DNA of 64,000 nt from NCBI GenBank assembly GCA_944323395.1, contig CALUSI010000010.1, positions 9,359-73,358 on the forward strand, in the 5' to 3' direction. The translations under genes and the position numbers were made by a program. Positions 34,284-55,036 of the stretch are shown in pieces. Below the pieces are notes generated by a model. It saw nothing but the letters and a program-made list of their open reading frames with translations. It was not told where the DNA came from and made no database searches. Position 1 is the stretch's first letter, and each line of letters starts with the position of its first letter. The DNA is from Candidatus Gastranaerophilales bacterium. GTDB taxonomy: Bacteria; Cyanobacteriota; Vampirovibrionia; Gastranaerophilales; Gastranaerophilaceae.

Positions 34284-34302
34284 AAAATATTTGAGGTCTT
34301 TT

Positions 34303-35424
34303 ATGGCAGATTCTTTAAACACAGAAAGTAATATTGTTGTAGGGTGTGGTATTTCAGGTGCTGTTATTGCAAATCTAATAGCCACAAAGTTTAATGAAAA
34401 AGTCATAATAATTGAAAAGAAAAGCCATATAGCAGGAAGCTGTTTTGATTATAGAGATAACAACGGAATTTGTATTCATAAATATGGTTCACATATTTTT
34501 CATACTAATAGTGAAATTGTCTGGGATTATTTATCACAATTTACCAAATTCAACAACTATAAACACAAGGTTATTGCTATTGTAGATGGTATTGAAACTA
34601 ATATTCCATTTAATTTTAATTCTTTGTATCAGGTTTTTCCTAAAAATATAGCATTGAAATTACAAAATAAATTAATAGAAAATTATGGACAAGATTCCAA
34701 AATTCCAATTTTGGAACTAAAAAAAGAAAAAGATAAAGATTTAAATTTTCTTGCTGATTTCATATATAAAAAAATATTTCTTGAATATACAAAAAAACAA
34801 TGGGGGATACCTCCTGAAAAAATAGACTCAACAGTTACAGCAAGAGTTCCTATATATATCTGTAAAGACAACAGATATTTTCACGATAAATATCAAGGAA
34901 TACCAATAAATGGCTATACAGAATTAATAAAGAAAATGATTTCTCATCCCAATATAACTGTAAAGTTGAATACAGATTATAAGAATGTAAAATTAAAATA
35001 TAAAAGATTATTTTACACTGGTTCAATTGACGAATTTTTTGATTATAAGTATGGGAAATTGCCATATCGAAGTTTAAGATTTGAATTTGAAGAATATAAT
35101 TACGCTTACTATCAAAAATCAGCGGTTGTTAATTATACAACAAGCGAAGACTTTACAAGAATTCATGAATATAAATATTATCTTAATGATAAGTCTGATA
35201 AAACAGTAATTGTTAAAGAATATTCTGAAAATTTTGAAGAAGGAAAAAATGAAAGATATTATCCAATTGTTAACGAGGAAAATCTTTCATTATATAACAA
35301 GTATTTAGAGGAGGCAAAACATATAAAAAATCTTTGGTTTTTTGGGCGTCTAGGTGATTATAAATATTATGATATTGATAAAGCAATTATTAGGGCAATT
35401 AATTTAATTAAAACAATTCAATAA
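34303..35424 (+). CDS. glf: UDP-galactopyranose mutase
   Basis: FAD motif VGCGISGAVIANLIA, YGSHIFHT, YTKKQWG, and the C-terminal FFGRLGDYKYYDIDKAI characteristic of Glf. Confidence 0.88.
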   Translation: MADSLNTESNIVVGCGISGAVIANLIATKFNEKVIIIEKKSHIAGSCFDYRDNNGICIHKYGSHIFHTNSEIVWDYLSQFTKFNNYKHKVIAIVDGIETNIPFNFNSLYQVFPKNIALKLQNKLIENYGQDSKIPILELKKEKDKDLNFLADFIYKKIFLEYTKKQWGIPPEKIDSTVTARVPIYICKDNRYFHDKYQGIPINGYTELIKKMISHPNITVKLNTDYKNVKLKYKRLFYTGSIDEFFDYKYGKLPYRSLRFEFEEYNYAYYQKSAVVNYTTSEDFTRIHEYKYYLNDKSDKTVIVKEYSENFEEGKNERYYPIVNEENLSLYNKYLEEAKHIKNLWFFGRLGDYKYYDIDKAIIRAINLIKTIQ

Positions 35425-39581: not shown

Positions 39582-40655
39582 ATGTTTAACAATATATATA
39601 AAGGGAAAAAAATATTTTTAACGGGTCATACAGGTTTCAAAGGAAGTTGGCTTTGTTTATGGTTAACTAAATTGGGGGCTGAAGTATGTGGATACTCATT
39701 GTCTCCAAATACAACACCTTCAATGTATAAAGAGTTAAACATTGATGAAAAAATTACAAAATCGATAATTGGTGATATTTTAGACGAAAATTTATTAAAT
39801 AATTCAATTAATGATTTTCAACCTGATATAATATTTCATCTTGCGGCGCAACCATTAGTCAGATTGTCATATCATGAGCCTGTTTTAACATATAAAACAA
39901 ATGTTATTGGCTCTTTGAATGTTCTTGAAGCAGCGAGACATTGCAAATCTGTAAAAGCATTTGTAAATGTTACTACAGATAAATGTTACGAAAATAAAGA
40001 AGTAAACAGAGGTTATAAAGAAGATGAACCTATGGGTGGTTACGATATGTATTCTTCTTCAAAAGGTTGTGTTGAAATATTATCATCATCATTTCGCCGT
40101 TCTTTTCTTCAAAAAGAGGGTGCTATGGCAATGGCAACAGCAAGAGCCGGTAATGTTATAGGCGGGGGAGATTGGGCATTAGACAGGTTAGTACCTGATT
40201 GTATTCGTGCAATTAATTCAAATAATGATATTGAAATTAGGAATCCTATAGCAGTAAGACCTTGGCAGCACGTGTTAGAACCATTGTCAGGGTATTTATT
40301 GCTGGGTCAAAAATTGTTGGAAGAAGGGTCTAAATATGCGGATGGATTTAATTTTGGACCAAATGAAGATAGTGTGTTAACAGTTGCAGAAGTAGCAAAG
40401 AAAGTAACAGAATTTTATTCCAAAGGAAAAGTTATTGTCGGAGAAGCAAGCCCCTTGCATGAGGCAGGTTTATTAATGTTGAATATTGAAAAGGCAAGAA
40501 ATATACTTGGTTGGATACCTACAAATAAAGCAGAAGAATCAATAAAAACAACTGTTGATTGGTATAAACATTTTTATGAAAAAGATGTTAACATTTATGA
40601 TTATACAATGAAACAAATAAGTGATTATGAGGAAAAAATTAAATGGATACAGTAA
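39582..40655 (+). CDS. rfbG: CDP-glucose 4,6-dehydratase
   Basis: KKIFLTGHTGFKGSWLCLWL, TTDKCYEN, YSSSK, and RAGNVIGGGDWA, all typical of RfbG/DdhB. Confidence 0.9.
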   Translation: MFNNIYKGKKIFLTGHTGFKGSWLCLWLTKLGAEVCGYSLSPNTTPSMYKELNIDEKITKSIIGDILDENLLNNSINDFQPDIIFHLAAQPLVRLSYHEPVLTYKTNVIGSLNVLEAARHCKSVKAFVNVTTDKCYENKEVNRGYKEDEPMGGYDMYSSSKGCVEILSSSFRRSFLQKEGAMAMATARAGNVIGGGDWALDRLVPDCIRAINSNNDIEIRNPIAVRPWQHVLEPLSGYLLLGQKLLEEGSKYADGFNFGPNEDSVLTVAEVAKKVTEFYSKGKVIVGEASPLHEAGLLMLNIEKARNILGWIPTNKAEESIKTTVDWYKHFYEKDVNIYDYTMKQISDYEEKIKWIQ

Positions 40656-41920
40656 TTATAGGTAGCGGAATATCCGGTATTTCAGCAGGCTATCATCTTC
40701 AAAAGGGAGGAGAAAAAGTTGTAATATACGAGAAAGACAATAATTGGGGTGGCCTTTGTGGTAATTTTACTATAGATGGCTTTAGATTTGATAGGTTTGT
40801 ACATTTCACTTTTGCTGATAATGAATATATTAGAAATTTATTTGAAGAATCTTCTCCTACTTATGCACATCCGAGTATATCAAGTAATTACTATAAGGGG
40901 TATTGGCTTAAACATCCTGCGCAAAATAATATTGCACCATTAACGGTAGATGAGAAAGTTGATATTATAAAAGGTTTTATAAACAGAAAAACTAAACCTT
41001 TTGAAGAAATAAAAGATTATGATGAATGGTTAAGGGTTCAATATGGCGATTATTTTGCAGAAAACTTTCCATTTAAATACACTCGTAAATATTGGGGATT
41101 AGAACCCAAAGAACTTGAAACAAAGTGGGTTGGAAATAGAATGCATACCCCTAATATAGATGAAGTTTTAAAAGGTTCATATGAAACTCAAGAAAAAATA
41201 TTCTATTATACATCGCATATGAAATATCCTAAAAAAGGCGGATTTAGAAGTATTTTAAATAAATGCCGAGAAGGTTTAGATATTCGATTTAATAAAGAAG
41301 TTGTTGAAATTAATCCTTTAGAAAAATATATAAAATTTAGTGATGGAACAAAAGAGAACTATAAAAGATTAATTTCAAGTTTGCCTTTGCCTGAAATTGT
41401 AAAAATGATAAAAAGTTGTCCAGAGGAAGTTATAAATTGCGCAGATAAATTACATAATACCTGCGGATATATGGTTTCATTAGGTTTCAAAAGACCTGAT
41501 GTCCCAAAGCATTTATGGTTTTATATTTATGATGAAGATATTCTTGCTTCAAGGGTATATTCTCCAAGTATGAAATCTTTAGATAATGTGCCAAATGGAT
41601 GCAGTTCTTTACAAGCTGAAATATTCTTCGATTGTAAATCTGAAATTCCAAGTAAAGAGGTTGTAATGAAAAATACTATTGAAAAATTAGTATCTATGGG
41701 ATTATTTAAAGAAGATGAAATTATAGTAAAAGATATTCGTTTTGAAAAATATGCAAATATCACTTTCGATAAAAATATTTATACAAATAGAAAAGTAGTA
41801 TTGGATTATTTGAAAAATCAAAATATAGAAACAATTGGCAGATTTGGGAAATGGGAATATTATTGGACACATCAGGCTTTTAAAAGCGGTATGGATACTG
41901 TTAAAAATGAGGAAAAATAA
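40643..41920 (+). CDS. FAD-dependent oxidoreductase, candidate nucleotide-sugar pyranose/furanose mutase
   Basis: GSGISGISAGYHL...VIYEKDNNWGGLC dinucleotide-binding motif. Overlaps the rfbG stop by 13 nt. The mutase role is inferred from context only. Confidence 0.6.
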   Translation: MDTVIIGSGISGISAGYHLQKGGEKVVIYEKDNNWGGLCGNFTIDGFRFDRFVHFTFADNEYIRNLFEESSPTYAHPSISSNYYKGYWLKHPAQNNIAPLTVDEKVDIIKGFINRKTKPFEEIKDYDEWLRVQYGDYFAENFPFKYTRKYWGLEPKELETKWVGNRMHTPNIDEVLKGSYETQEKIFYYTSHMKYPKKGGFRSILNKCREGLDIRFNKEVVEINPLEKYIKFSDGTKENYKRLISSLPLPEIVKMIKSCPEEVINCADKLHNTCGYMVSLGFKRPDVPKHLWFYIYDEDILASRVYSPSMKSLDNVPNGCSSLQAEIFFDCKSEIPSKEVVMKNTIEKLVSMGLFKEDEIIVKDIRFEKYANITFDKNIYTNRKVVLDYLKNQNIETIGRFGKWEYYWTHQAFKSGMDTVKNEEK

Positions 41921-42146: not shown

Positions 42147-44879
42147 TCAATATTTATATAATATATTGTTATTTTTCATAACTGATAATAAATACCTTGA
42201 CTCCAAATCAAAATTATGACAAAAACTTTTTTGCTTTGCCTCTTCTATTGTTCTATCATTAAAATAATGAGAAGAATAATCATCTACACTTTCTTGCAGA
42301 AATGAAAAACCATAAGCACTAATTTTCTTACAAGAACATTCTTTTAACAAAAAGTTTAAAATATTAAATCCCGTAGTTGGAAAAAATACACCACTTTCCA
42401 TCTTTAAATTTCTCATAAAGTTTTTATCTAAGGACAGAGAAAGTATTTTATTCACATTAATATCCCTATGCATTATATCAAGGAAATTATATAAAATAGG
42501 AAATTGTGAATAGTCTGTAGCCCAAACACAAGCTTGATAAAAATTATCTTTAGTCATATCCTTTACATCTACTGAGCCCATACCCCTAACCCAAATATCA
42601 GTCTTTTGTCCATAATCTTCTATATAATTTTGTGTATCATAGTTATTAACTCTGATTACTAAATCATGAGAATCAATTTCATTTCCTTTTCTTTTTCCAA
42701 TTTCAGATGGTCCATTTCCGACAACAGAAACGGATTTATCTTTTACTAGATTTTTGAATGTAATAATATTTCTCAACAACTGTTCATATACAATAGTAGC
42801 TTTTTCAATATCTACATTATTATATCCGTTTTCAACTGCAAATTTAGATACAATGAAATATTTATTAATATTAACCAATCCCCAACGTTTAATATATTCT
42901 AATAGTACAGCTTTAGCTGTAACATAATCTTCATTCTCAATTAGAGTTGCAATGTATATCAATAAATCATCATTTGACAAATCTTTTAGTTTAGTATTTT
43001 GTATATATTTCTTACAAATTATTAGCATTTCTTTAGAGTTTATATGTTTAATAAATGCGTCTAATAATGATGTTGCAAAAATATATTGGCCATTTTGCAC
43101 ACTACAAAAAGTCTGAATTTGTAATCGATTTTGAAGAATTTCAATTTTTTTATTTAAATAAATGAATCTAGCTTCTGCCATTCTTAAACGTTCAGATGTC
43201 CTACATTTTTTTACTTGAAAACCTAAAATAAAATATATAGAATGTCCATCTGAAGCAGATTTATGAAATATTTTCTTTTTTATACGAATAATATTATTTT
43301 TAAAATTATTTATAAAATTATTATAAAAGGGGGTTTGTTTGTAATAATTAAAATATAAATCTTTATATGGACCGACATAATCTTTATTCCAAGGTTTTAT
43401 ATTTCCAACAAAATGTATAATTGAAGGATGTTTTTGAGCATAATTATAATCTCTAATATCATCAGGAATAAATCTTTCTCTTTTACTGTGGAACCAATGA
43501 TGAACATTCCATCTTGTTGATAATACTTTTATATTTCCTCTAAAAATATCATTTATTAAATCTTGATCCCCTAATTGATATTTATCAATAAAGTTACAAA
43601 TGTAATCATTTAATTTCTGAATATAGTTTGTATTACGCAATTTCTGTAAATCAAGTAATAAAACACCCGCATTAATATATTTAGATGTAAGCATATTATG
43701 TCCCAAACTTTTACCTAACACAATACCATTTACATCTTCACAGCCAGCAATAGGGCATTCATCCATATCTATTGAATAAAGTTTTGAAATATCATCTAAA
43801 ACAAGAGTATCCGAATCAATATATATAACCTTATCTTCATTAGGAAGAAGATGTGGTAATAATAATCTCAAAAAAGTAATATTATTTATATGTTTAGGCA
43901 CTTTTATATGTTGAAAAATATCAATTTGTTTATTAGAAACATCAATAAAACTAATTTTATAATTATTACCTTTCTTTAAATTAGTTATTTTTTTCTTTAA
44001 TTTTTGAGATATTTTCTTATTTGTTAAAATATAAAAACATAAGTAAAAATTTTTATCTACATTATTTAACATCGACAACATAGTCGTAGCACAATAAGGC
44101 AAGTATTCATTACTTGAGGATAAAACAACCGGGATTTTCTGTAATTCATTATATCTATACAAAGAGATTTCTTTTATTTTTAGTTCATTTTGGTGTTTAA
44201 ATACATATACATTTAACAAAATTTCACCAAAGAACCCTTTTATTCTTTTTTGTTCAATACAATCATTGATATTAAAATTTAGAATACTAAATAACCAATT
44301 AGAATAATCAAAAAATTGTTCTTTTTTCATTATAAATATATTGTACCAATGTATTTTATCTGTTTTTAATACTGTATCAAATGCATTTTTATATTCAGGA
44401 TAAAGATCTATTACTCTTTTGTATATATAATTAATATCGACAATATTATGTTCAACAGTCCAATGATCGATAATACTATTTTTATACTTTTTCTCTTGAT
44501 TTGAATAAGCACAAATTTTTTTAGAGACGATAATATCAAAATTTTTAATAATACTAAATATATGCTTTTTTGAAAAATTGAGTTCACTAAAATCTACAGA
44601 TTTTTCACGATTAAAATCAAATAACCGTCTATAATGCATGAATCCAACATAATTAGGAGCTCCAATTTCATTGTAATTTTTCCATACCCAATATTGTGCA
44701 GTTAGTTCACAATAAGTATCATTTTCAGAGGAAATATTATCTCCTGTATTATCGCCAATCATGTCTTGAAAAACTTCGTCTGAAATAGCTCTACCTGTCT
44801 GAATGGGAATAACAACATTTGAACTTATTAATTTATGCTTATTTTTATAACTGACAAAAATTTTTACTTGATTATTCAT
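42147..44879 (-). CDS. three-module glycosyltransferase: DUF4422-type + GT8 + C-terminal Cst/GT42-like module (paralog A)
   Basis: N-terminus IFVSYK..PIQTGRA..DNISSEN..YCELTAQYWVWKN..VGFMHYRR. GT8 with YIDSDTLVLDD and HFVG..KPW. C-terminal VSVVGNGPSEIG..IDSHDLVIRVNNY and ISAYGFSF resemble the sialyltransferase (Cst-II/GT29 L-motif) pattern. Confidence 0.75.
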   Translation of the reverse strand: MNNQVKIFVSYKNKHKLISSNVVIPIQTGRAISDEVFQDMIGDNTGDNISSENDTYCELTAQYWVWKNYNEIGAPNYVGFMHYRRLFDFNREKSVDFSELNFSKKHIFSIIKNFDIIVSKKICAYSNQEKKYKNSIIDHWTVEHNIVDINYIYKRVIDLYPEYKNAFDTVLKTDKIHWYNIFIMKKEQFFDYSNWLFSILNFNINDCIEQKRIKGFFGEILLNVYVFKHQNELKIKEISLYRYNELQKIPVVLSSSNEYLPYCATTMLSMLNNVDKNFYLCFYILTNKKISQKLKKKITNLKKGNNYKISFIDVSNKQIDIFQHIKVPKHINNITFLRLLLPHLLPNEDKVIYIDSDTLVLDDISKLYSIDMDECPIAGCEDVNGIVLGKSLGHNMLTSKYINAGVLLLDLQKLRNTNYIQKLNDYICNFIDKYQLGDQDLINDIFRGNIKVLSTRWNVHHWFHSKRERFIPDDIRDYNYAQKHPSIIHFVGNIKPWNKDYVGPYKDLYFNYYKQTPFYNNFINNFKNNIIRIKKKIFHKSASDGHSIYFILGFQVKKCRTSERLRMAEARFIYLNKKIEILQNRLQIQTFCSVQNGQYIFATSLLDAFIKHINSKEMLIICKKYIQNTKLKDLSNDDLLIYIATLIENEDYVTAKAVLLEYIKRWGLVNINKYFIVSKFAVENGYNNVDIEKATIVYEQLLRNIITFKNLVKDKSVSVVGNGPSEIGKRKGNEIDSHDLVIRVNNYDTQNYIEDYGQKTDIWVRGMGSVDVKDMTKDNFYQACVWATDYSQFPILYNFLDIMHRDINVNKILSLSLDKNFMRNLKMESGVFFPTTGFNILNFLLKECSCKKISAYGFSFLQESVDDYSSHYFNDRTIEEAKQKSFCHNFDLESRYLLSVMKNNNILYKY

Positions 44880-44938
44880 TATAAATTACCATTCTAAAAC
44901 GTATTCAAATATAATATTTACACTTTTTTTTATATTTT

Positions 44939-44966
44939 ATACAACAAATTGTATATTTTGTTGTAT
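44939..44966. repeat. left lox/dif-like dyad site (IRL): ATACAACAAA-TTGTATAT-TTTGTTGTAT
   Basis: Perfect 10-bp inverted arms around an 8-bp spacer, 17 nt upstream of the recombinase start. Its reverse complement shares a perfect 14-nt run with 45562-45575. Confidence 0.7.
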
Positions 44967-44982
44967 TGAAAGGAGCTTAAAT

Positions 44983-45525
44983 ATGTCTGTTGTCGAACCA
45001 ATAAGAAACAAAATGGTAATTAAAAACATTGAAGAATTTTTAAAAAAAAGGAAATTAAGAGATTATGTTCTATTTTGTCTGGGAATCAATTCGGGATTAA
45101 GAATTTCTGATATTTTAAATTTAAATGTGTCTGACGTAAAAAATAAGAATTATTTAAAATTATGCGAGAAGAAGACAGGTAAGTATAAAATAGTTCCTTT
45201 AAATAAAAAATTAAAAAATATTTTAAACATTTACACTCGAAATAGAGCGTTAGACGAACCTTTATTTTTAACGAAATTCAATAATAGAATGGATAGGATA
45301 ACAGCATACAGAATTATAAACAATGCTTGCAAAGAAAAAAATTTAAAAACAAATATAGGCACACATACTCTAAGAAAAACCTTCGGTTACCATTTTTATA
45401 AGGAATACAAAGACATTGCAATGTTACAAAAAATATTAAATCATTCAACACCTAGAATTACTATGAGATATATAGGAATAGATGATGAAGAAATTTGGAA
45501 TTGTTGTAAAAAATTTATTTTATAA
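44983..45525 (+). CDS. small tyrosine site-specific recombinase (catalytic domain only, FimB/FimE-like size)
   Basis: Catalytic residues are recognisable: R in GLRISD, K in KTGKYKIVPL, HxxR in HTLRKTF, H in LNHS, Y in MRYIG. At 180 aa it lacks an N-terminal core-binding domain. Confidence 0.85.
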   Translation: MSVVEPIRNKMVIKNIEEFLKKRKLRDYVLFCLGINSGLRISDILNLNVSDVKNKNYLKLCEKKTGKYKIVPLNKKLKNILNIYTRNRALDEPLFLTKFNNRMDRITAYRIINNACKEKNLKTNIGTHTLRKTFGYHFYKEYKDIAMLQKILNHSTPRITMRYIGIDDEEIWNCCKKFIL

Positions 45526-45554
45526 TTGTAAGCATGTTAGGTTTATAGTATACT
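45526..45554 (+). promoter_or_regulatory. candidate sigma70-type promoter TTGTAA-17 nt-TATACT inside the right end of the putative invertible segment
   Basis: -35 at 45526-45531, a 17-nt spacer, and -10 at 45549-45554. The predicted +1 falls at the start of IRR. Confidence 0.4.
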
Positions 45555-45558
45555 TTTT

Positions 45559-45586
45559 TTGCAACAAAATATACATAATGTTGCGT
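45559..45586. repeat. right lox/dif-like site (IRR): TTGCAACAAAATATACATAATGTTGCGT
   Basis: Dyad GCAACA...TGTTGC. Matches the reverse complement of IRL at 20/28 positions, including the perfect run CAACAAAATATACA (45562-45575). Confidence 0.7.
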
Positions 45587-45760
45587 TGAGAGTAAACAAT
45601 TTTAAAAGGTAAGTAGTATTGGATATTTTAATAAGTAAAAAGGCATCATAGCATAATCCATAGTTATAAGAGGATTCTGTTATTTTTTTTATTTATAGTG
45701 TAGTTTTATACAATGCAGTAATTGAGAGAAAAATCAATTTATTTGTGAGAGGAAATGTTA

Positions 45761-47746
45761 ATGGGAAATGATGTAAAAATTTTTGTGAGTTATAAAGAAA
45801 AACATAAAATTCTTGAAACTGGTATTATAAAACCAATTCAGACTGGACGTGCAATTGCTGATGAAGCTTTTGAAGGTATGATTGGCGATAATACAGGAGA
45901 TAATATTTCATCTGAAAACAATAAATATTGTGAGTTATCAGCACAATATTGGGTTTGGAAGCATTATGAAGAGATTGGGAATCCTGATTATGTTGGCTTT
46001 ATGCATTACCGTAGACATTTTCTTTTTAATGATAACTATCCGAAAAGTGAGAAAACTTGGTTAAACAAATCAAAGTATTATTTGTATGAGAATATAACAA
46101 ATGAATATATTCAGGAAAATTTTCAGGATGAATTAATAGAAAATTCTATAAACGGATACGATATAATTTTATGTGAACAATTCAATTTTTCAAATCATTT
46201 TGCAAAAACAATAAGAGAAAATTATTCGAAACTGTTAGGTCAAAATGTTGAAAATTATGATTTATTAATGACATTAGTAAAAAATATGTTTCCTGAATAT
46301 GAAGCTGCTGTTGAAAAGTTTAAAAAAACAAAAACAATGTGGTTATGTAATATGTTTATTATGAAAAAAGAGTTATTTTTTGAGTATAATAATTTTCTTT
46401 TCCCAATGTTGAAAAAAATTGATGAATTAGTTGATTCAAGTCATTTTACATATAATGGATTGAGATTTCTTGGCTATTTAAGCGAGTTTTTACTGAATAT
46501 ATTTATTTTACATAAAAGCTTGAATAATAATATAAATATAAATAATTTAGATATGGCTGTTTTTAACGAAGTATCAGATGAAGAATTTATTGAACCAATA
46601 TATAAAGAAAATTTTGTTCCAATAGTAATACCTTGTAGTAATCTATATGCACCATATTTAAGTGTTTGGCTTCAATCAATAATTGATAATTCTTCCAGCA
46701 ACAATAATTATGACATCATTGTTCTTCAAGATGATATTTCTATTCAAAATCAAGAAAAATTATCTTATATGCTGAAAGATCTAAATAACTTTTCATTGAG
46801 ATTTTATAATCCTAGTAAATATTTAGATAAATCAAAAATAAAAGTTGAGAAAAATTATTTAAGTTCTGTATCTTCTTATAGAATTCTTATAGATAAATTT
46901 ATGAAAGGTTATGATAAAGCAATTATATCTGAAGTTGATATGATTTTTAAGTCAGACATTATGGATTTATATAAAATAGATATAAAGAATTATCCAATAG
47001 CTGCGATTATCGACCCACATTTCATCAGAGGATATAACATTACGCCAAATAGAGAATATTATGCAATTGAAGAACTAAAACTAAAAGATAAATATAAATA
47101 TGTAAATACAGGTTTAATGATTTTAAACATTACTGAATTTTCTAAAAATAACTATTCAGATAAGTTGGTAGAATTGTTGTCTTCAGGAACATATATTTGT
47201 CTTGAGCAAGATGCGATGAATGAATTGTTTAATGGGAACATTTACATATTAGACTTAAAATGGAATTTTCTTGTCACAGACGAACAAAGAGAACAACTTG
47301 TAAAAAGTATGCCTAAAGATCTTTATGATAGCTGGATTGCAGCAAAATCTTCCTATTATGTGATACATTGGTGCGGTTCAAGAAAGCCTTGGATCAATCC
47401 AGATGAGTATTATGCATATAAGTGGTGGGAAATTGCAAAAAGGACGCCATTCTATGAAGAAATAATATATCAAAAAATAAATACAAATATTTCAAATTCA
47501 AAATCTGCTCCAATTCAAAATACAGAAAAGGTTATTAAACAGTTTATACAAAATCCTGTTGATTATTCTTTATTAACCAGTGTTTTATTCCAAAGAAAAA
47601 TATATTTAAAGTATTGGAAATATAAAATTTTGCAAAATTTTGTGTTTGGAAAGAAACGTGATGAATATAGAGCTAAAAAGTATAAATATAAAAATAGATG
47701 TTTACAAGTTAAAGATTTCATTAATAGGTATAAAAATGCTTACTAG
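45761..47746 (+). CDS. DUF4422-type + GT8 two-module glycosyltransferase (paralog B)
   Basis: Same N-terminal signature as paralog A. The GT8 region carries an E-V-D variant of the DxD motif. ATG 45761 has better spacing from GAGAGG (45747-45752) than ATG 45755. Confidence 0.82.
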   Translation: MGNDVKIFVSYKEKHKILETGIIKPIQTGRAIADEAFEGMIGDNTGDNISSENNKYCELSAQYWVWKHYEEIGNPDYVGFMHYRRHFLFNDNYPKSEKTWLNKSKYYLYENITNEYIQENFQDELIENSINGYDIILCEQFNFSNHFAKTIRENYSKLLGQNVENYDLLMTLVKNMFPEYEAAVEKFKKTKTMWLCNMFIMKKELFFEYNNFLFPMLKKIDELVDSSHFTYNGLRFLGYLSEFLLNIFILHKSLNNNININNLDMAVFNEVSDEEFIEPIYKENFVPIVIPCSNLYAPYLSVWLQSIIDNSSSNNNYDIIVLQDDISIQNQEKLSYMLKDLNNFSLRFYNPSKYLDKSKIKVEKNYLSSVSSYRILIDKFMKGYDKAIISEVDMIFKSDIMDLYKIDIKNYPIAAIIDPHFIRGYNITPNREYYAIEELKLKDKYKYVNTGLMILNITEFSKNNYSDKLVELLSSGTYICLEQDAMNELFNGNIYILDLKWNFLVTDEQREQLVKSMPKDLYDSWIAAKSSYYVIHWCGSRKPWINPDEYYAYKWWEIAKRTPFYEEIIYQKINTNISNSKSAPIQNTEKVIKQFIQNPVDYSLLTSVLFQRKIYLKYWKYKILQNFVFGKKRDEYRAKKYKYKNRCLQVKDFINRYKNAY

Positions 47747-48854
47747 TTTTATTTATAGAAAAAAAGATGATGGTATAAATAAAAAAGTTTATATTTTAGG
47801 GTTGCCAATATATTCAAAAAGAAGAAAAGACGGATATATCAAACGTTCTTATTTCTTTTCATTGTTGCAAATAAGAGAATATGACTATGAAAAAGTATAT
47901 TATTTTTGTAAATTAAAAGTATATAAAAATTTGAATATAACCAAATTACTTATTGATTTTCAAAATAAGAATGAACTTATTACAAAACTAGAAAATAACA
48001 TACTTATAAAAAATAATAATGAAATACTTAAAAAGAATAAAAATGATATTCTAGCAATTATAAAAAATGAAATAAAGGAGAATTTTTCTTTACTGGAAAA
48101 TAGTTTGTATGGTAAGGTTAAAACTTTAATTCAGTGTCAAAATGTCCATAAAGAAACATTCGGACCATACAAGAATGCTTTTCTCGGCAGTGATGTTGTT
48201 CTGGTTGCTTCAGGACCTACAGCAAAATTTCATATTCCAAAAGATGGAGTAATATATGTTGGCGTAAATAATGCTTGTTTGCTGGATAATGTCAAATTGG
48301 ATTATCTTTTCTGTCAGGATTTTTATATGGATGAAGAAAAAAGGAATGCTATTGTTAATTATAGACCAGATAAATGCAAGAAATTTTTTGGAAGAATACC
48401 TGATGAGAGAATTGCTGAATGTAGAAAAAGTGCTCAAGATGCTCATGTTACAAGATGTCCCAAGTGCTTTATAGAAAGAGCAAATGCGAAAGAATATTAT
48501 GTTGATGAAAAAATGAAATTTACGTTATGCATGGATATTGAGAATGAGCCGTTAAGTGCTTGGGGAATAGTTTTTCCTGCAATGCAGTTTATTTTACATG
48601 CACATCCCAAAAGAATATATTTGGTAGGCTGTGATTGTTCCTCCGGTTTCTTTTATAAATCAGAAGTAACTTTTGATAATTCGCCAATGAAACGAGGCTG
48701 GAAAATTTTAGCAGAACATATAAAAGAATTTTATCCAGATATAGAAGTAATTTCTTTAAATCCTGTTGGGTTAAGAGGATTATTTAAAGATGAATATTCT
48801 GAAGACTATCTTGCTAGCTTAAGTGAAGAAGAGAGGTCTTGTATAAGTGTATAA
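47736..48854 (+). CDS. hypothetical protein with C-terminal Cst/DUF115(MptE)-like nucleotide-sugar transferase-like module
   Basis: VVLVASGPTAKF...VGVNNA...LFCQD and IYLVGCDCS resemble the GNGPS/SGID pattern of Cst-type transferases. The track start (47640) lies inside the upstream gene; ATG 47736 overlaps its stop by 11 nt. Confidence 0.5.
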   Translation: MLTSFIYRKKDDGINKKVYILGLPIYSKRRKDGYIKRSYFFSLLQIREYDYEKVYYFCKLKVYKNLNITKLLIDFQNKNELITKLENNILIKNNNEILKKNKNDILAIIKNEIKENFSLLENSLYGKVKTLIQCQNVHKETFGPYKNAFLGSDVVLVASGPTAKFHIPKDGVIYVGVNNACLLDNVKLDYLFCQDFYMDEEKRNAIVNYRPDKCKKFFGRIPDERIAECRKSAQDAHVTRCPKCFIERANAKEYYVDEKMKFTLCMDIENEPLSAWGIVFPAMQFILHAHPKRIYLVGCDCSSGFFYKSEVTFDNSPMKRGWKILAEHIKEFYPDIEVISLNPVGLRGLFKDEYSEDYLASLSEEERSCISV

Positions 48855-49563
48855 AATTATATTCTCTGATTTTGACGGAGTATTGTTTGATTCTGTAAAA
48901 GAAGCATATATATTATCTAGATATGCGTATGATAATATAGACTTCAAGTCAGAAATAAATGAAATAGAATATCAGCTTTTTAAAAAATATAGATATTTAA
49001 TTACTCATAGTTGGCAGTTCTATATAATTTTTAAGTTAATCAAACAAAAGATAAATGATGAAGAGTTTGAATTACATTATAATAATCTTATTTCGGCCAA
49101 AATAAAGAAAGAAGCATCAAAATTTGATGAAAAATATGTACAAGGAAGAGAATTATTATTAAAAACGGATTATAAATTTTGGGATAGCTTAGATATTCCA
49201 TTTGATTTTTTTTATGAATTAAAAAAAATAGTTGATAAAAAAGATAATAAGATTTTTATTCTTACAAATAAAAAAAAGTTACCAGTATCGAATAAATTAA
49301 AAAAATATGGTGCAGATAAGTTTAATATATTTGCGCAAGAAGATTTAACAAAATATAAAAATAAAGCCGAATTTATAAACGAATATATGTATATAAATAA
49401 GCTTAAAAATGCTATTCTAATTGAAGATAGTATAGATAACATAAATGAATGTAATAAATATCAAAATATAAAAACGATTCTGGTAGACTGGGGATATATT
49501 TCTCCCAAAGAGAAAGGCAAAAGTCTAAAAGATGTATTAAAAATAATACAGGAGGTTATATGA
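48847..49563 (+). CDS. HAD-superfamily hydrolase (probable sugar-phosphate phosphatase)
   Basis: Motif I FSDFDGVLFDS, motif II ILTNK, and a C-terminal EDS acidic motif. GTG start overlaps the upstream stop by 8 nt. Confidence 0.7.
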   Translation: MYKIIFSDFDGVLFDSVKEAYILSRYAYDNIDFKSEINEIEYQLFKKYRYLITHSWQFYIIFKLIKQKINDEEFELHYNNLISAKIKKEASKFDEKYVQGRELLLKTDYKFWDSLDIPFDFFYELKKIVDKKDNKIFILTNKKKLPVSNKLKKYGADKFNIFAQEDLTKYKNKAEFINEYMYINKLKNAILIEDSIDNINECNKYQNIKTILVDWGYISPKEKGKSLKDVLKIIQEVI

Positions 49564-50306
49564 AAATAATAGGTATAATACCAGCAAGATATCAGTCAAG
49601 CCGATTTGAAGGAAAACCACTTGCCGATATATTAGGGAAACCTATGATATGGTGGGTTTATCAGCAAGCAATAAAAGTGAAATATTTAGATGAAGTTTAC
49701 GTAGCTACAGATGATGTAAGAATAGAAAAAGCCTGTAAAGATAATAATATTAATGTTATTATGACCTCCTCTGAACATAAGACAGGAACTGACAGAATTG
49801 GTGAAGTTGCTCGAAAAATAAAAGCTGATTTATATGTTAATATTCAAGGCGATGAACCAATGATTGAGCCTGAAACAATATCAAAGGCCATTATTCCTTT
49901 TCTTGAAAATAAAAATTTGCAAGTATCTAATTTAATGACTAAAATTAAAGATCCTGTTGATGTTGTTAACTTCACAGTTCCAAAAGTAATTACAAATAAA
50001 GATAATATAGGAATATATTTAACTAGAAGTACAACTCCATATCCAAAAGGCAGTATAGATTATTCATATTATAAGCAAGTATGTGTATATGGGTTTACTC
50101 CTGAAGCATTAGAGTTTTATTGTAATAATCCAAGAGGAAAAATAGAACAAATAGAAGATATAGAAATATTGAGATTTATAGAGGCCGGTTATAAGGTTCA
50201 ATATATAGAAGTAGATAGTGATACAGTAGCAGTTGATACAAAAAAAGATTTAGAAAAAGTAAGATTCTTAATGAAAGAAAAATATAATAGAGGAATAAAT
50301 GAATAA
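49560..50306 (+). CDS. kdsB: 3-deoxy-manno-octulosonate (or related ulosonic acid) cytidylyltransferase
   Basis: IIPARYQSSRFEGKPLADILGKPMIWWV...TGTDRIGEVA...NIQGDEPMIEPETI closely parallels E. coli KdsB motifs as recalled. Confidence 0.85.
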   Translation: MKIIGIIPARYQSSRFEGKPLADILGKPMIWWVYQQAIKVKYLDEVYVATDDVRIEKACKDNNINVIMTSSEHKTGTDRIGEVARKIKADLYVNIQGDEPMIEPETISKAIIPFLENKNLQVSNLMTKIKDPVDVVNFTVPKVITNKDNIGIYLTRSTTPYPKGSIDYSYYKQVCVYGFTPEALEFYCNNPRGKIEQIEDIEILRFIEAGYKVQYIEVDSDTVAVDTKKDLEKVRFLMKEKYNRGINE

Positions 50307-51852
50307 TATTAGAATTTTAGACTGTACCCTAAGAGACGGTGGATACGTCAATAACTGGAATTTTAAAGAAAATAATATAAAATTTATAATAGAACATTTA
50401 GTTCAATCAGGATGTGACTATATTGAGTGCGGTTTTCTAAAAAAAATACCTTATGATAAAGATAAATCATTATTTAACTGTTTTCAACAATTAGACAATA
50501 TACTACCAAATACATCTAAAACAAAATTTACCCTTATGATTAACTATGGAGAAATTCCAATAGAGGATATTCCTTCTTGTAATACTAAAATAAATCTTAG
50601 AATAGTATTTAAAAAAGAGAAAAGAAATGAGGCTGTTGAATATTGTAAGAAACTAGTGGCAAAGGGATATAGCATATTTGTAAATCCAATGAGTTCAAAT
50701 ACATATTCAAGTGCAGAGTTTTTAGATTTAATAAATAAAGTAAATGAGATAAATCCTGTAGGATTCACAATTGTAGATACAACAGGCGCAATGAGCAAAA
50801 AAGATACGTTAGCTTTATATTATTTAATTGAAAATAACTTGAATAAAAATATTGCTCTATGCTTTCATTCGCATAATAATTTACAGCTATCTTTTTCAAA
50901 TGCACAAATATTGATGGAACAAAATACAAATAGGACAATTATTATTGATTCAACTGTTTTTGGAATGGGGCGTGGAGCGGGAAATCTTTGTACCGAACTT
51001 TTAGTAAAATATATTAATGATAATCATAATGGTAATTATGAATTAATTCCAATACTAAAAATAATAGATGAACAAATTGCAAAAATATTTGCTGTTTCGC
51101 CTTGGGGTTATTCTGTTCCGTATTATATAGCAGCGTCTATGCATTGTCACCCAAACTATGCAAAGTATTTAATAGACAAACAAACTGTTCCTGTCGAACT
51201 TATAACCCAAATATTAAATAAAATTCCATATGATAAGAGAGGAACATATGATGTAAATGTAGTTGAAGATTTATACTATTCAACATTAAATTGTTTGGTC
51301 GATGATGCTGAATCCTTAGAAAAATTAACAAAATTATTAAAAGATAAGAAAATTCTTGTTCTTGCATCTGGCAAAAGTATTGTTGATGAAGAAGAAAAAA
51401 TTAATAATTTTATTGAGAATGAAAAACCTTTTATTATTTCATTAAATTATATTCCAAAAAACTATAATCCGAATGTTGTTTTTATAACAAATATAAAAAG
51501 ATACAATAGTATAGGCAAAATTAATATACCTTGTATTACAACATCTAACGTTAAACAAGATTCAGACTATAAATTAAATTATTTATCTTATGTTGATGAA
51601 AGTAGTGTTGGAGACAATGTAGCTTTAATTTTGTTCCGTCTTCTTATAAAAATAGGCATTAGAAGTATTTCAATTGCTGGATTTGATGGATATTCTGAAA
51701 ATTCTCAAGAAAACTATGCAGATACGGATTTAATCAATCTTGAATCAATTAATGATATTTATATAAAAAATCAGAAAATAAAGAACTATTTGAATAGTAT
51801 AGAAGGTAAATTGGAAATTAATTTTATAACAAAGTCCATATATATAAATTAA
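50299..51852 (+). CDS. DRE-TIM metallolyase (HMGL-like, DmpG-type pyruvate aldolase) fused to a C-terminal Cst/DUF115-like module
   Basis: N-terminal ILDCTLRDGGY, FHSHNNLQLS, and the DSTVFGMGRGAGN metal/substrate motifs of HMGL-like aldolases. The C-terminal 170 aa carries ILVLASGKS and ISIAGFDGYS. Confidence 0.65.
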   Translation: MNNIRILDCTLRDGGYVNNWNFKENNIKFIIEHLVQSGCDYIECGFLKKIPYDKDKSLFNCFQQLDNILPNTSKTKFTLMINYGEIPIEDIPSCNTKINLRIVFKKEKRNEAVEYCKKLVAKGYSIFVNPMSSNTYSSAEFLDLINKVNEINPVGFTIVDTTGAMSKKDTLALYYLIENNLNKNIALCFHSHNNLQLSFSNAQILMEQNTNRTIIIDSTVFGMGRGAGNLCTELLVKYINDNHNGNYELIPILKIIDEQIAKIFAVSPWGYSVPYYIAASMHCHPNYAKYLIDKQTVPVELITQILNKIPYDKRGTYDVNVVEDLYYSTLNCLVDDAESLEKLTKLLKDKKILVLASGKSIVDEEEKINNFIENEKPFIISLNYIPKNYNPNVVFITNIKRYNSIGKINIPCITTSNVKQDSDYKLNYLSYVDESSVGDNVALILFRLLIKIGIRSISIAGFDGYSENSQENYADTDLINLESINDIYIKNQKIKNYLNSIEGKLEINFITKSIYIN

Positions 51853-53094: not shown

Positions 53095-53152
53095 AAGCAT
53101 ACGTAAAAATTCATAGATAAAGATAAAAATAAAATAAGCAAGAAAGAGTTTG

Positions 53153-55036
53153 ATGCCAAAAATTAAGATATTTGTTTCTTATAAAGATAAGCATAAAATA
53201 ATAAAGTCAGATATTATTACTCCAATTCAAACAGGTCGTGCTATAGCTGAAGAAGTTTTTGAAGGGATGATTGGTGATGATACAGGTGATAATATTTCAG
53301 TTTTAAATAACAGATTTTGTGAAACAACAGCAATATATTGGGTTTGGAAAAATTATGAACAAATCGAGAATCCAGATTATGTTGGATTTATGCATTATCG
53401 CAGGCATTTTTTGTATGGAGAAAAAAATTATAACACTAACTATTATGGATTAGTAAAATATGAAAAACTAAATCAAGAATATTTAGAAGAGAATATAACT
53501 GATGAGAATATAAAAAATATAGTAGAGAAATATGATGTAATTATTCCAAGACGTATTACAAATTTTGAAATTAATGGTTTAAAGAATAATTATAAACAAT
53601 ATAAAAAATCTCATAATATTGATGATTTGGACAAAGCACTTAATATTCTTACAGATAAATATCCTGAATATAAAAAATATGTAGAAGAATATAAAAATAG
53701 CAATTATGCATATTACTTAAATATGTTCATAATGAGAAAAGATATATTTTTTGAATATTGTAATTGGCTATTTTCTATATTATTTGAATTGCGTTATACT
53801 ATTATTCCAACCTCTGACAATTATCAAAATAGAGTTATTGGCTTTATTTCAGAGAGATTGACAGATATATTTTTTAGGAAGCTGTATGATGACAAATACA
53901 GAATGAAAGAATTACCAATCAGTTATATAGAGTGTGTAGAAGAAAATTCCGACATTGAAAAATCAAATCTTGGGGAAAACAATATTATACCAATTGTTTT
54001 TTCAACCGATTTTAAGTTCTTCCCATATTTAAGTGTATGTTTACAATCTATTAAAGATAATATAAATTCTAACTATAAATATGAAATAAATATTTTAGAA
54101 AGAGGGCTTACTCCTAATAATAAAAATTTTTTAAAGAATCAAATGAGCTCTGATAACTTTGTTATTAAATTTTATAATGTTGAAAAGTTATTAGAGAAGT
54201 TTTCTTCACCACAAAATTTACAACATATTTCTGTTGACACATATTCCAGATTTTTTATCCCATCAATACTAAACGCTTATGAAAAATGCATTTATTTAGA
54301 TGGAGATACAATAGTTAGGGATGATTTAGCAAAGTTATATCAGACTCCTTTAAACGGAAAAACAATTGGGGCCTCTGTTTGCGCAGTAATTTCAGCTTGG
54401 ACTAATATAGATAAAGAAATAAAAGATTATATAAATAAAACAATTGGCATAAGCGATAATTCAAAATATTTTCAAGCCGGTGTACTAATTCTCAATTTAA
54501 AGAAAATGAGAGAAAATAATTCACAAGAAAAACTTATAGAACTAGCTAGTAAAAAAAAGTGGAAATTTGCTGATCAAGATATTCTGAATAAACTATATAA
54601 AGATGATGTTCAGTATATAGATATGGCTTGGAATTATGAATATGAACACAGTGATATGCGAAAAGCGCAATATAAGGAAATGATGCCGCTAAGTATATTA
54701 CAGGAATATATTAACGCTAAAAAGAATCCTAAAATTATACATTTTCAAGGGCAAAGAAAACCATGGCTGTGGCAAGATGAAGAATTTGCTTCAATATGGT
54801 GGAATTATGCAAGAAAATCAAGTTTATATGAGCAATTTATAGTAAACATGATAGATAATCGAAAAAATTATCAAATGGAAAATATTAAACTTTATAAAAA
54901 ATATAAATTTAAGTTTTTAAAATATAAAATACTACGAAATGTTTTTTGGGGAAAGATTCGTAAAAAGTATATAATAAAAAAGAATGTGTATAAAGATAAA
55001 TTAATAGAGATAAAAAGATTAATAGGAAATTTATAA
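53153..55036 (+). CDS. DUF4422-type + GT8 two-module glycosyltransferase (paralog D)
   Basis: N-terminal signature as in A-C. GT8 with YLDGDTIVRDD and IHFQGQRKPW. Basic amphipathic C-terminal tail like paralog B. Confidence 0.82.
   Translation: MPKIKIFVSYKDKHKIIKSDIITPIQTGRAIAEEVFEGMIGDDTGDNISVLNNRFCETTAIYWVWKNYEQIENPDYVGFMHYRRHFLYGEKNYNTNYYGLVKYEKLNQEYLEENITDENIKNIVEKYDVIIPRRITNFEINGLKNNYKQYKKSHNIDDLDKALNILTDKYPEYKKYVEEYKNSNYAYYLNMFIMRKDIFFEYCNWLFSILFELRYTIIPTSDNYQNRVIGFISERLTDIFFRKLYDDKYRMKELPISYIECVEENSDIEKSNLGENNIIPIVFSTDFKFFPYLSVCLQSIKDNINSNYKYEINILERGLTPNNKNFLKNQMSSDNFVIKFYNVEKLLEKFSSPQNLQHISVDTYSRFFIPSILNAYEKCIYLDGDTIVRDDLAKLYQTPLNGKTIGASVCAVISAWTNIDKEIKDYINKTIGISDNSKYFQAGVLILNLKKMRENNSQEKLIELASKKKWKFADQDILNKLYKDDVQYIDMAWNYEYEHSDMRKAQYKEMMPLSILQEYINAKKNPKIIHFQGQRKPWLWQDEEFASIWWNYARKSSLYEQFIVNMIDNRKNYQMENIKLYKKYKFKFLKYKILRNVFWGKIRKKYIIKKNVYKDKLIEIKRLIGNL

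Follow-up and report, generated by a model that had tools for sequence, protein, structure and literature searches.

Two kinds of pathway are known to supply bacteria with CMP-activated 3-deoxy-2-ulosonic acids such as those considered here. The Kdo pathway comprises KdsD, KdsA, KdsC, and KdsB, with KpsU and KpsF as capsule-type counterparts. The pathways for sialic acid, Kdn, and other nonulosonic acids combine NeuB, NANS, or a Kdn-9-P synthase with a HAD phosphatase and with NeuA or CMAS. A cassette of four overlapping genes from a Candidatus Gastranaerophilales bacterium, contained within the 64-kb stretch of DNA that we analyzed (hereafter called the window), has features of both kinds.

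Like the Kdo pathway, the cassette ends in a KdsB-type cytidylyltransferase (CT), includes a HAD-superfamily phosphatase comparable with KdsC, and presumably yields a CMP-activated 3-deoxy-2-ulosonic acid for a surface glycan. Unlike that pathway, neither KdsA, the PEP-dependent synthase of the DAHP_synth_1 fold, nor an SIS-type isomerase is present in the window or in the neighborhoods examined, and the candidate for carbon–carbon bond formation is instead a DRE-TIM metal aldolase. The phosphatase is a capped HAD_2-like enzyme, whereas KdsC belongs to a different, cap-less HAD type. In addition, the window CT lacks the conserved His181, and the transferases linked to the cassette fall outside the Kdo-transferase families.

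The sialic acid pathways resemble the cassette in their order of events, which is condensation with a three-carbon keto acid, dephosphorylation by a HAD enzyme, and activation with CMP. Of the loci that have a CT, half pair this aldolase with a NeuA-like enzyme, and GT29-, GT38-, and GT52-like and DUF115 transferases are found close by. However, the cassette has no NeuB-family synthase, its presumed donor is pyruvate rather than PEP, and genes for UDP-GlcNAc-derived precursors are not consistently present among 144 sampled neighbors.

The best characterized structural matches for the aldolase are the class II DRE-TIM enzymes DmpG, BphI, and HsaF, with which it shares a TIM barrel and a trailing helical subdomain as well as an Asp/His/His metal site whose Asp is flanked by an Arg. 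In contrast to these enzymes of aromatic catabolism, the protein encoded here occurs in a context of glycan biosynthesis, scores far below the family cut-offs, carries a unique DUF115-like C-terminal domain, and has no DmpF-type partner. A closer match is PDB entry 3DXI, the N-terminal domain of BVU_2661 from Bacteroides vulgatus, which belongs to the same subfamily and has the motifs CTLRDGGY and GMGRGAGN in common with the barrel. This structural-genomics entry is labeled "putative aldolase," and a literature search found no publication on it or on the fusion family described below.

A four-gene cassette in a surface-polysaccharide island

The cassette (47736-51852) is an overlapping string of genes within a surface-polysaccharide island. 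The original prediction described four coupled genes with overlaps of 11, 8, 4, and 8 nt, and the ORF coordinates bear this out. The 11-nt overlap joins the first of the four to the upstream gene that begins the string, called paralog B (45755-47746, forward strand), whose 663-aa product has Pfam matches to DUF4422 and a GT8 glycosyltransferase; the remaining overlaps run from gene to gene. This layout is not due to chance, because the adjacency of CT and aldolase genes is seen again in 64 of 80 species-level loci.

The first gene (47736-48854, forward strand) encodes a 372-aa protein whose ATG start at 47736 agrees with the 372-aa gene called in a 97%-identical relative and is also backed by homologs that cover its full length. 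Searched directly against Pfam, this protein gives no match. Many of its homologs nevertheless carry PF01973 (MptE-like/DUF115), frequently in one polypeptide with a GT8 or GT2 domain; among these PF01973 carriers are dozens that match the 372-aa protein at E values from 1e-35 to 1e-63. The DUF115/MptE-like group also includes the Maf flagellin glycosylation factors, the pterin pyrophosphokinase MptE, and SteA. The designation "Cst/DUF115-like" in the original prediction is thus tentative, with a basis in the homologs and no direct match. A 38%-identical homolog occurs in another cassette locus (L004). We regard the 372-aa protein as a candidate for the enzyme that transfers the activated sugar acid.

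A second candidate for a transferase acting on the acceptor side is the 910-aa product of a gene on the reverse strand (42147-44879), which combines DUF4422, GT8, and GT29 domains (PF00777, E 5.7e-20; PF14393; PF01501), GT29 being a sialyltransferase family. A recombinase gene (44983-45525) is located between the 910-aa gene and paralog B.

The second gene of the cassette (48847-49563, forward strand) was expected to encode a HAD phosphatase. Its 238-aa product is below threshold for PF00702 (E 2.5e-3; 18.7 against a gathering score of 26.4), and the assignment was upheld by profile alignment. Compared by hhalign with the HAD_2 phosphatases encoded after the aldolase in other loci, it is related with 97% probability (E 8.8e-11), and motifs I-IV (DxD, T, K, DS) are aligned. 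Homologs of this protein hold the equivalent position in four other loci (L003, L004, L007, and L008). This "type 1" HAD is a putative sugar-acid-phosphate phosphatase.

A KdsB-type cytidylyltransferase with an altered sugar-contact residue

The third gene (49560-50306, forward strand) encodes a 248-aa protein that matches CTP_transf_3 with an E value of 1.8e-50 and exceeds the NCBIfam cut-offs for KdsB (NF009905, 294 against 255; NF003952, 273.9 against 193; TIGR00466, 168.1 against 155.2), which confirms its original description as KdsB-type. Its best PDB match is the E. coli enzyme K-CKS (1GQ9; 40.6% identity, E 2.8e-52). Both the N-terminal CTP-binding motif IPARYQSSRFEGKPL and the metal/sugar motif NIQGDEP align with those of four solved KdsB structures. 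We therefore describe the protein as a putative CMP-ulosonate synthetase.

In KdsB, residues Gln98 and Tyr185 (E. coli numbering) contact O5 of Kdo (PMC12199768). These two residues are kept in the window CT. His181, which is conserved across all four solved KdsB enzymes, is replaced by Gln, giving Gln/Gln/Tyr rather than Gln/His/Tyr. Moreover, the complete triad is found in none of 29 aldolase-linked KdsB-like CTs, and the supply of ordinary LPS Kdo is therefore an unlikely role for them. The altered contact residue suggests a sugar acid other than ordinary Kdo, although the window CT retains Gln98 and Tyr185 and passes the KdsB cut-offs, and so Kdo itself could still be the substrate at this locus. 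Enzymes of the same subtype (72-84% identical) adjoin the aldolase in Clostridia, including Proteocatella and Acutalibacteraceae, and the CT beside the aldolase in Proteocatella sphenisci is 83% identical to that of the window.

A putative aldolase barrel fused to a DUF115-like domain

The last gene (50299-51852, forward strand) encodes a 517-aa fusion. Its residues 1-334 (50299-51300) form a DRE-TIM metallolyase barrel with a helical subdomain, are assigned by Pfam to the HMGL-like family (E 1.3e-20), and carry the motifs ILDCTLRDGGY, FHSHNN, and GMGRGAGN. Among PDB profiles, 3DXI ranks first (E 1.9e-28 over residues 3-281) and DmpG-type aldolases follow, with 4LRS (E 7e-8) ahead of the synthase entry 3EEG (E 2e-5). 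The AlphaFold model of the barrel (pLDDT 85.5) has 3DXI, 4LRS, 4JN6, 8IH7, and 1NVM as its top Foldseek matches. NCBIfam models give 69 bits for the DmpG type and 37 bits for the isopropylmalate/homocitrate type. Clustering with the latter synthases, which had been named as the outcome that would speak against an aldolase, was thus not seen in any of the three comparisons, although the lead over Claisen-type synthases is modest in each.

The barrel is nearer to DmpG than to isopropylmalate (IPMS) or homocitrate synthases, but it misses all of the curated DmpG cut-offs (NF006049, 69.4 against 229; TIGR03217, 60.9 against 286). Among 81 sequences, Arg12, Asp13, His190, and His192 are at least 95% conserved, corresponding to the Asp/His/His metal site and the Arg beside the Asp. 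Tyr16, within TLRDGGY, is equally conserved (at least 95%), and it occupies what we take, from the DmpG motif TLRDGSH, to be the position of the catalytic His. Membership in the isopropylmalate, homocitrate, or citramalate synthases receives at best 37 bits against cut-offs of 413-950. The fusion has no LeuA-type regulatory domain, its C-terminal domain being DUF115-like instead, and no gene for an acylating aldehyde dehydrogenase of the DmpF type is present nearby in the annotated neighborhood. We consider the barrel to be a putative class II pyruvate aldolase.

Residues 335-517 (51301-51852) form an alpha/beta domain (model pLDDT 88) that is a remote relative of the DUF115, MptE, and GT42 families. 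Unlike the members of these groups, including the GT42 Cst sialyltransferases, it falls below every threshold for direct membership; PF01973, for example, matches with an E value of 1.1e-3 and 19.3 bits, against a gathering score of 34.6. Its best Foldseek match is SteA (E 9e-3, TM 0.44), and the PDB profile matches are weak (E 0.14-0.9) and include SteA, MptE, and Cst enzymes. The clearest relationship is to the family of the 372-aa protein (hhalign probability 91.5%, E 8.8e-7). The original prediction assigned the transfer step to "Cst-like modules"; the kinship of this domain with DUF115/MptE is only distant, and none of these results marks it as a transferase. In full-length matches it always corresponds to approximately residues 325-528 of aldolase fusions and occurs only there, and 13 of its positions are at least 95% conserved in the 81 sequences. 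It is probably an integral, nucleotide-binding part of the synthase, and may serve in aldose delivery, aldose phosphorylation, or sensing of the CMP product.

Distribution and genomic neighborhoods of the fusion

The fusion family comprises 6,610 protein clusters, all of approximately 520-530 aa, and occurs in the genomes of at least 593 species. Gastranaerophilales harbor the closest relatives of the window aldolase, and other carriers include Bacillus, Gottfriedia, Paenibacillus, Proteocatella, Lachnospiraceae, Ruminococcaceae, and Acholeplasmataceae. Carriers of the Bacillus, Clostridia, and Acholeplasma types are not known to have LPS. The spread of the CT-aldolase pair across phyla that include such presumably LPS-less bacteria argues against the view that this kdsB is merely the only copy serving LPS Kdo.

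The sugar-acid CTs directly beside the fusion are KdsB-like in 32 loci and NeuA-like in another 32, and KdsB-like and NeuA/PseF-like enzymes swap within single aldolase clades. Where gene order was assessed, a CTP_transf_3 gene is immediately upstream of the fusion in 58 of 73 loci. In the remaining 16 of the 80 loci the fusion lacks a CT neighbor, and one of these has a TPP enzyme instead. Taken together, the CT and the aldolase fusion probably produce an activated sugar resembling sialic acid or Kdo, through an undescribed route.

Partners other than the CT are more variable. An adjoining HAD phosphatase gene is present in 29 of the 80 species loci. In six others its place is taken by a gene resembling 2-keto-3-deoxygluconate (KDG) kinase, which overlaps or closely trails the aldolase gene. 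The six KdgK-like kinases score 500-550 bits against the kinase half of NF041633, and enzymes of this kind take a 3-deoxy-2-ulosonic acid as substrate. They come from various families but from two aldolase clades only; the window clade is not among these and has the phosphatase. The expectation that transferases for a CMP-sugar acid would be encoded nearby held true, since sialyltransferase-like families are found near the fusion: GT29 (in the window), the GT38-like A-2_8-polyST (6 of 144 random neighbors), DUF115, and GT52.

The absence of a PEP-dependent synthase, which was central to the original prediction, also stands for the window ORFs scanned and for the sampled neighbors. NeuB (PF03102) and KdsA/DAHP synthase (PF00793) models have no match in any window ORF of 244-401 aa or in the island genes scanned. 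The scan took in ten ORFs at 31.5-45.5 kb, of which nine are island genes (31.5-41.9 kb) and one is the recombinase gene, eight around the cassette, and ten more of 244-401 aa from other parts of the window. Genes for KdsA, KdsC, and KdsD are likewise absent from the 64-kb window. In the Pfam-annotated neighborhoods of related loci there is no NeuB or DAHP_synth_1 domain, nor does either appear in the list of the 25 most frequent families among 144 random neighbors of fusion genes.

A proposed route and its alternatives

On balance, we favor by a little the interpretation that the last two cassette genes and the preceding HAD gene form a portable module for making a CMP-activated 3-deoxy-2-ulosonic acid with a pyruvate aldolase in place of a PEP synthase. 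In such a route, deduced from gene content, the TIM barrel of the fusion would form the enolate of pyruvate on its Asp/His/His metal site and add it to a sugar aldehyde, which would probably be phosphorylated. The HAD enzyme would then strip the terminal phosphate, thereby also drawing the reversible aldol reaction forward, and the KdsB-type CT would join the anomeric hydroxyl to CMP. Finally, two sialyltransferase-like enzymes of the island could place the sugar acid on a polysaccharide, namely the 372-aa DUF115-like protein and, through its GT29 domain, the 910-aa protein. The sugar acid may have six, eight, or nine carbons. The PEP-independent scheme gains from the conserved CT-aldolase pair and from the missing PEP synthase, but as a linear series it is incomplete because the HAD phosphatase is not universal and the KDG-kinase-like gene replaces it in some loci. 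A simple progression from sugar phosphate to ulosonate phosphate to ulosonate leaves this exchange of kinase for phosphatase unexplained.

It is unlikely, in our estimation, that the cassette merely provides ordinary CMP-Kdo, with a KdsB of the capsule type, comparable to KpsU of E. coli, drawing on Kdo from housekeeping KdsA, KdsC, and KdsD encoded elsewhere in the genome and with the fusion serving an unrelated function in the operon. Gastranaerophilales possess an outer membrane and the genome is probably LPS-bearing, the aldolase has its nearest kin in this order, and the CT passes the KdsB cut-offs, matches K-CKS best, and keeps QGDEP and the Tyr185 equivalent. Against this stand the Gln at the position of His181, the 8-nt overlap of the CT and fusion genes, the presence of the same CT subtype beside the aldolase in Clostridia, and the persistence of CT-aldolase adjacency while NeuA-like CTs freely substitute.

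Two further alternatives concern the aldolase itself, and we consider each of them improbable. The barrel might be a Claisen-type, acetyl-CoA-dependent enzyme or some other non-sugar synthase whose product is a small citramalate-like acid, either CMP-activated or used as a nonglycosidic decoration. The HMGL-like family does include many acetyl-CoA-dependent synthases, models for IPMS, homocitrate synthase, and citramalate synthase give E values of 1e-9 to 1e-7, homocitrate synthases appear in Foldseek at approximately 1e-10, and HSHNN is presumably intermediate between the DmpG and IPMS patterns. However, DmpG-type models are ahead in every comparison, cyclic 2-ulosonic acids are the only known substrates of both partner CT families, the linked transferases are sialyltransferase-like, and the KdgK-like and HAD partners indicate phosphates of sugar acids. 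The aldolase could instead rework an existing 2-keto-3-deoxy acid, for example by epimerizing KDPG at C4 to KDPGal through a retro-aldol and a subsequent aldol step, or as a pool-balancing lyase, with KDG salvaged from uronate catabolism leading to a CMP-hexulosonic acid. Pyruvate aldolases are reversible and run both ways, and canonical KdgK-like kinases adjoin the aldolase gene in different families. Yet the kinase is confined to six of the 80 loci and to clades other than that of the window, where a phosphatase is found, and it would consume rather than provide the presumed substrate of the CT.

Implications for surface glycan biosynthesis

If the aldolase-based route is correct, the candidate products would vary with the sugar phosphate used; ribose-5-P, for example, could give an epimer of Kdo, glyceraldehyde-3-P could give a hexulosonic acid, and Man-6-P could give Kdn. 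More broadly, and more tentatively, since we hold this wider proposal to be somewhat less than an even prospect, a PEP-independent route may be widespread among bacteria of the gut and the environment, some of them from lineages that lack LPS. The fusion would condense pyruvate with a common sugar phosphate to give a sugar acid distinct both from standard Kdo and from the nonulosonic acids made by NeuB, and sialyltransferase-like enzymes would install this sugar acid on surface polysaccharides.

A candidate core for CMP-activated sugar acids

The 517-aa fusion protein and the cytidylyltransferase (CT) encoded next to it appear, on a modest balance of probability, to constitute a portable two-gene core for the synthesis of a CMP-3-deoxy-2-ulosonic acid, extended here by a HAD phosphatase, with the barrel of the fusion presumed to condense pyruvate with an aldehyde. 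They belong to a cassette of four genes located at 47736-48854 (a 372-aa DUF115-like protein), 48847-49563 (a 238-aa HAD protein), 49560-50306 (the 248-aa CT), and 50299-51852 (the fusion). The coordinates agree with the original prediction both in gene placement and in start/stop overlaps of 11, 8, 4, and 8 nt. Placing the start of the 372-aa gene at ATG 47736 matches the gene call in L001, a homologous cassette locus from a 97%-identical relative, and homolog coverage that begins at the first residue of the protein is consistent with this choice.

The CT matches CTP_transf_3 (E 1.8e-50) and passes three curated KdsB models, which upholds its description as a KdsB-type enzyme. Its best solved relative is 1GQ9, the E. 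coli capsule CMP-Kdo synthetase (E 2.8e-52, 40.6% identity). The 238-aa HAD protein is divergent, with a Pfam score below threshold. Profile-profile comparison with HAD_2 phosphatases found downstream from the aldolase elsewhere (97% probability, E 8.8e-11) aligns all four catalytic motifs and supports its assignment as a phosphatase. A Pfam search with the 372-aa protein gave no direct match. PF01973 (MptE-like/DUF115) is found in its homologs, frequently in fusion with GT8 or GT2 domains, which supports the DUF115-like call and a putative glycosyltransferase role.

The cassette resides in a surface-polysaccharide island that spans 31.5-57 kb of the window, whose G+C content is ~27%. This island encodes three GT2 glycosyltransferases, a sugar-1-phosphate nucleotidyltransferase, an epimerase, a 4,6-dehydratase, and a bona fide UDP-galactopyranose mutase (34291-35424). 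The gene for an amine-oxidase/NAD_binding_8 flavoprotein (40643-41920) overlaps that for the dehydratase, which is of the CDP-hexose type, and the flavoprotein may be an additional enzyme resembling a pyranose/furanose mutase. There are also four DUF4422 paralogs, three of which carry a GT8 domain, and past these an ABC exporter assigned from its homolog in L001. One of the three GT8-bearing paralogs, a 910-aa protein encoded on the reverse strand (42147-44879), additionally contains a domain of GT29 (E 5.7e-20), a family of sialyltransferases found chiefly in eukaryotes and seldom in bacteria.

A gene for a 180-aa tyrosine recombinase (44983-45525) is situated between 31-nt imperfect inverted repeats (44942-44972 and 45553-45583) and separates two divergent paralogous DUF4422-GT8 genes. 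Together, the 5' ends of these two genes make up a 38-nt inverted repeat (44844-44881 and 45759-45796). This region (44842-45800) looks like an invertible phase-variation switch, and similar small integrase genes adjoin the cassette at L003, L004, and L086-L094 in other genomes. The DUF4422 gene at 53150-55036 encodes 628 aa (DUF4422 plus GT8), whereas its L001 counterpart (L001:12855-13898) encodes 347 aa (DUF4422 alone) despite cassette proteins that are 97-100% identical. This difference is a strain-level variation of the transferase set.

An HMGL-like barrel with an integral C-terminal domain

The N terminus of the fusion is an HMGL-like barrel (E 1.3e-20) whose nearest solved relative is 3DXI (E 1.9e-28), a “putative aldolase” deposited by structural genomics without an assigned function. 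Residues R12, D13, H190, and H192, which comprise the metal ligands and a neighboring Arg, are at least 95% conserved among 81 sequences sharing 36-65% identity. Equally conserved is a Tyr at the position of the catalytic His of the DmpG motif. The barrel also scores below the cut-offs for DmpG-type aldolases and lacks their dehydrogenase partner. Thus, although a DmpG-type mode of action is ascribed to the barrel, we do not count it as a member of that family. Our literature search found no publication on the fusion family, and the SugarBase preprint on new CMP-sugars does not mention it.

Residues ~335-517 form a separate alpha/beta domain (pLDDT 88 when modeled alone). Several signals, each of them weak, point in the same direction, toward DUF115/MptE. 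These include a Pfam match to MptE-like (E 1.1e-3), a best fold match to SteA, which contains an MptE-like domain (E 9e-3, TM 0.44), and profile matches in the PDB to SteA, two GT42 sialyltransferases, and MptE (E 0.14-0.9). When aligned by hhalign with the family of the 372-aa protein (91.5% probability, E 8.8e-7), the domain places its loops opposite those of its partner as LAPGKS/VATGPS, SVN/GVN, and AGFDG/VGCD. At 13 positions, all of them polar or glycine, conservation reaches at least 95% among the 81 sequences, from which we predict a genuine ligand-binding or active site.

Among 1.84 billion representative proteins searched, the domain was recovered in 721 clusters. In full-length matches it invariably occupies residues ~325-528 within aldolase fusions of ~520-540 aa (672 aa in one case), and shorter matches resemble gene fragments. 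For this reason we conclude that the domain is an integral part of the fusion enzyme. It could act as a kinase or pyrophosphokinase, hydrolyze a nucleotide-sugar to supply the barrel, sense the CMP product, or serve as a transferase. The “GKS” loop also prompted consideration of a SIS-type sugar-phosphate isomerase, analogous to KdsD. This reading was not adopted, as Foldseek matches to SIS domains were weak (probability 0.4-0.5, TM ~0.26) and the DUF115/MptE signals were consistently better.

Recurrence of the aldolase-cytidylyltransferase pair

The fusion family comprises 6,610 clusters (E ≤ 1e-3) of proteins uniformly ~520-530 aa long and is present in at least 593 species-representative genomes. 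Among the matches listed, the closest relatives are from Candidatus Gastranaerophilales, the probable source lineage of the window, and others come from Lachnospiraceae, Ruminococcaceae, other Clostridia, Bacillus, Gottfriedia, Paenibacillus, Acholeplasmataceae, Bacteroidales, Treponema, Helicobacteraceae, and Alphaproteobacteria. A CT gene directly adjoins the fusion gene in 64 of 80 species-level loci. Half of these CTs are KdsB-like and half are shorter NeuA/PseF-like proteins. Since both types are found within single aldolase clades, as defined by identity clustering, they appear to be interchangeable. The CT from the window is 83% identical to one from Proteocatella sphenisci that likewise directly precedes an aldolase fusion.

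The type of accessory gene correlates with aldolase clade. In the window, a clade-12 aldolase is accompanied by a “type 1” HAD and by a KdsB-like CT of subtype Q/Q/Y. A HAD phosphatase is detectable at 29 of the 80 loci. At six others (L021, L029, L030, L045, L078, and L082; e.g., L021:11590-12612), none of which has a detectable HAD, a PfkB kinase gene of the KdgK-like type overlaps or closely follows the fusion gene. We attempted a single scheme that accommodates this kinase and arrived at no satisfactory model.

At L045, a 614-aa thiamine-diphosphate enzyme (L045:8130-9971) precedes the fusion in place of the CT, with the KdgK-like kinase after it, which suggests that the 2-oxo acid product has a different fate in some lineages, possibly decarboxylation. 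In L096-L105, which are Gastranaerophilales-type Wzx/Wzy loci, a gene for a 508-aa protein with a weak match to Asn_synthase (e.g., L096:5092-6618) lies directly before the HAD-CT-aldolase trio. Its product may amidate the carboxylate of the sugar acid.

Absence of PEP-dependent synthases

To our knowledge, PEP-dependent synthases are common to every route so far described to Kdo, sialic, pseudaminic, and legionaminic acids for glycoconjugates. For this reason, NeuB and KdsA serve as markers when genomes are mined for “sialic-acid-like” surface sugars. The island had been proposed to lack such an enzyme, and indeed neither NeuB nor DAHP_synth_1 (KdsA) was found among its genes, in any window ORF of 244-401 aa, or in the Pfam-annotated neighborhoods of homologs. 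Both were also absent from the 25 commonest families among 144 randomly sampled neighbors (255-400 aa, 80 loci), a list from which one or two NeuB genes could be missing.

Sialyltransferase-like genes do occur nearby. A-2_8-polyST (GT38) was found in six of the 144 sampled neighbors, and other candidates are GT29 (in the window), GT52, and DUF115 proteins (20/80 loci). All four families use CMP-linked ulosonic acids or resemble families that do.

Alternative explanations

One alternative is that the CT provides plain CMP-Kdo and the aldolase beside it is unrelated. In E. coli KdsB, the C5 hydroxyl of Kdo forms hydrogen bonds with Gln98 and Tyr185 (PMC12199768). All four solved KdsBs in our alignment have the Gln98/His181/Tyr185 triad, which is missing from every one of 29 aldolase-linked KdsB-like CTs. 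These CTs fall into groups Q/Q/Y (the window type), N/H/L, N/Y/E, and N/F/Q. Because the window subtype keeps Gln98 and Tyr185 and only His is changed, a Kdo-like eight-carbon acid is possible at this locus. A plain LPS KdsB is argued against by the loss of the triad, by the 8-nt overlap between the CT and fusion genes, and by recurrence of the CT-aldolase pair in lineages some of which, as far as we know, have no LPS. Housekeeping KdsB function is therefore unlikely for this protein, and we assign a low probability to simple CMP-Kdo supply. The literature on LPS in Gastranaerophilales offered nothing useful. The CT residues were too few to name the sugar, as published work allowed us to place just Q98, H181, and Y185.

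We consider a Claisen-type reaction or a non-sugar product quite improbable. DmpG aldolases rank second to 3DXI as relatives of the barrel and isopropylmalate/homocitrate synthases score lower, in keeping with its original assignment to the DmpG/HMGL type, and fold matches of the AlphaFold model (pLDDT 85.5) rank as the sequence matches do. Equally doubtful is salvage or epimerization of a pre-existing keto-deoxy acid such as KDG or KDPG. In favor of this salvage reading, the KdgK-like kinases reach 500-550 bits with the kinase half of a KHG/KDPG-aldolase/sugar-kinase model, and KDG/KDGal kinases are their next-best match.

A predicted route and its product

In the pyruvate condensation route that we favor, the DmpG-like barrel would stand in for the PEP-dependent synthase, the donor would be pyruvate, and the acceptor would be a sugar aldehyde in phosphorylated form. 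The HAD would then dephosphorylate the product and thereby pull the reversible aldol reaction forward, the CT would add CMP at the anomeric hydroxyl, and the DUF115 and GT29 proteins would transfer the activated sugar acid. Since hosts of very different kinds manage with two or three genes, we speculate that the acceptor is probably some widely available metabolite, such as glyceraldehyde-3-phosphate, ribose-5-phosphate, or Man-6-P. The lines of evidence disagree on the carbon number of the acid. KdgK-like kinases point to six carbons, KdsB-like CTs to eight, and NeuA-like CTs together with the sialyltransferase-like transferases to nine.

The module shares with the Kdo and sialic acid/Kdn pathways the logic of condensation, HAD phosphatase, and CT, and its last enzyme belongs to their CT families. 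However, their defining synthase is missing and an enzyme from a different superfamily is present instead, so the module falls outside both pathways as they are defined. Comparative genomics thus suggests that the cassette encodes a variant pathway rather than a known Kdo or sialic acid/Kdn system.

If the cassette does make a CMP-ulosonic acid by way of a pyruvate aldolase, acidic sugars overlooked by present annotation would be displayed by hundreds of species. Gut commensals account for many of these species, which include Gastranaerophilales, Lachnospiraceae, Ruminococcaceae, Bacteroidales, Bacillus, and Paenibacillus. The large “putative aldolase” family represented by PDB 3DXI would gain a function, as would a new DUF115-like domain, and a compact two- or three-gene module would become available for enzymatic synthesis of activated sugar acids. 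Acidic surface sugars of this kind are relevant to immune recognition, phage receptors, and glycoengineering.
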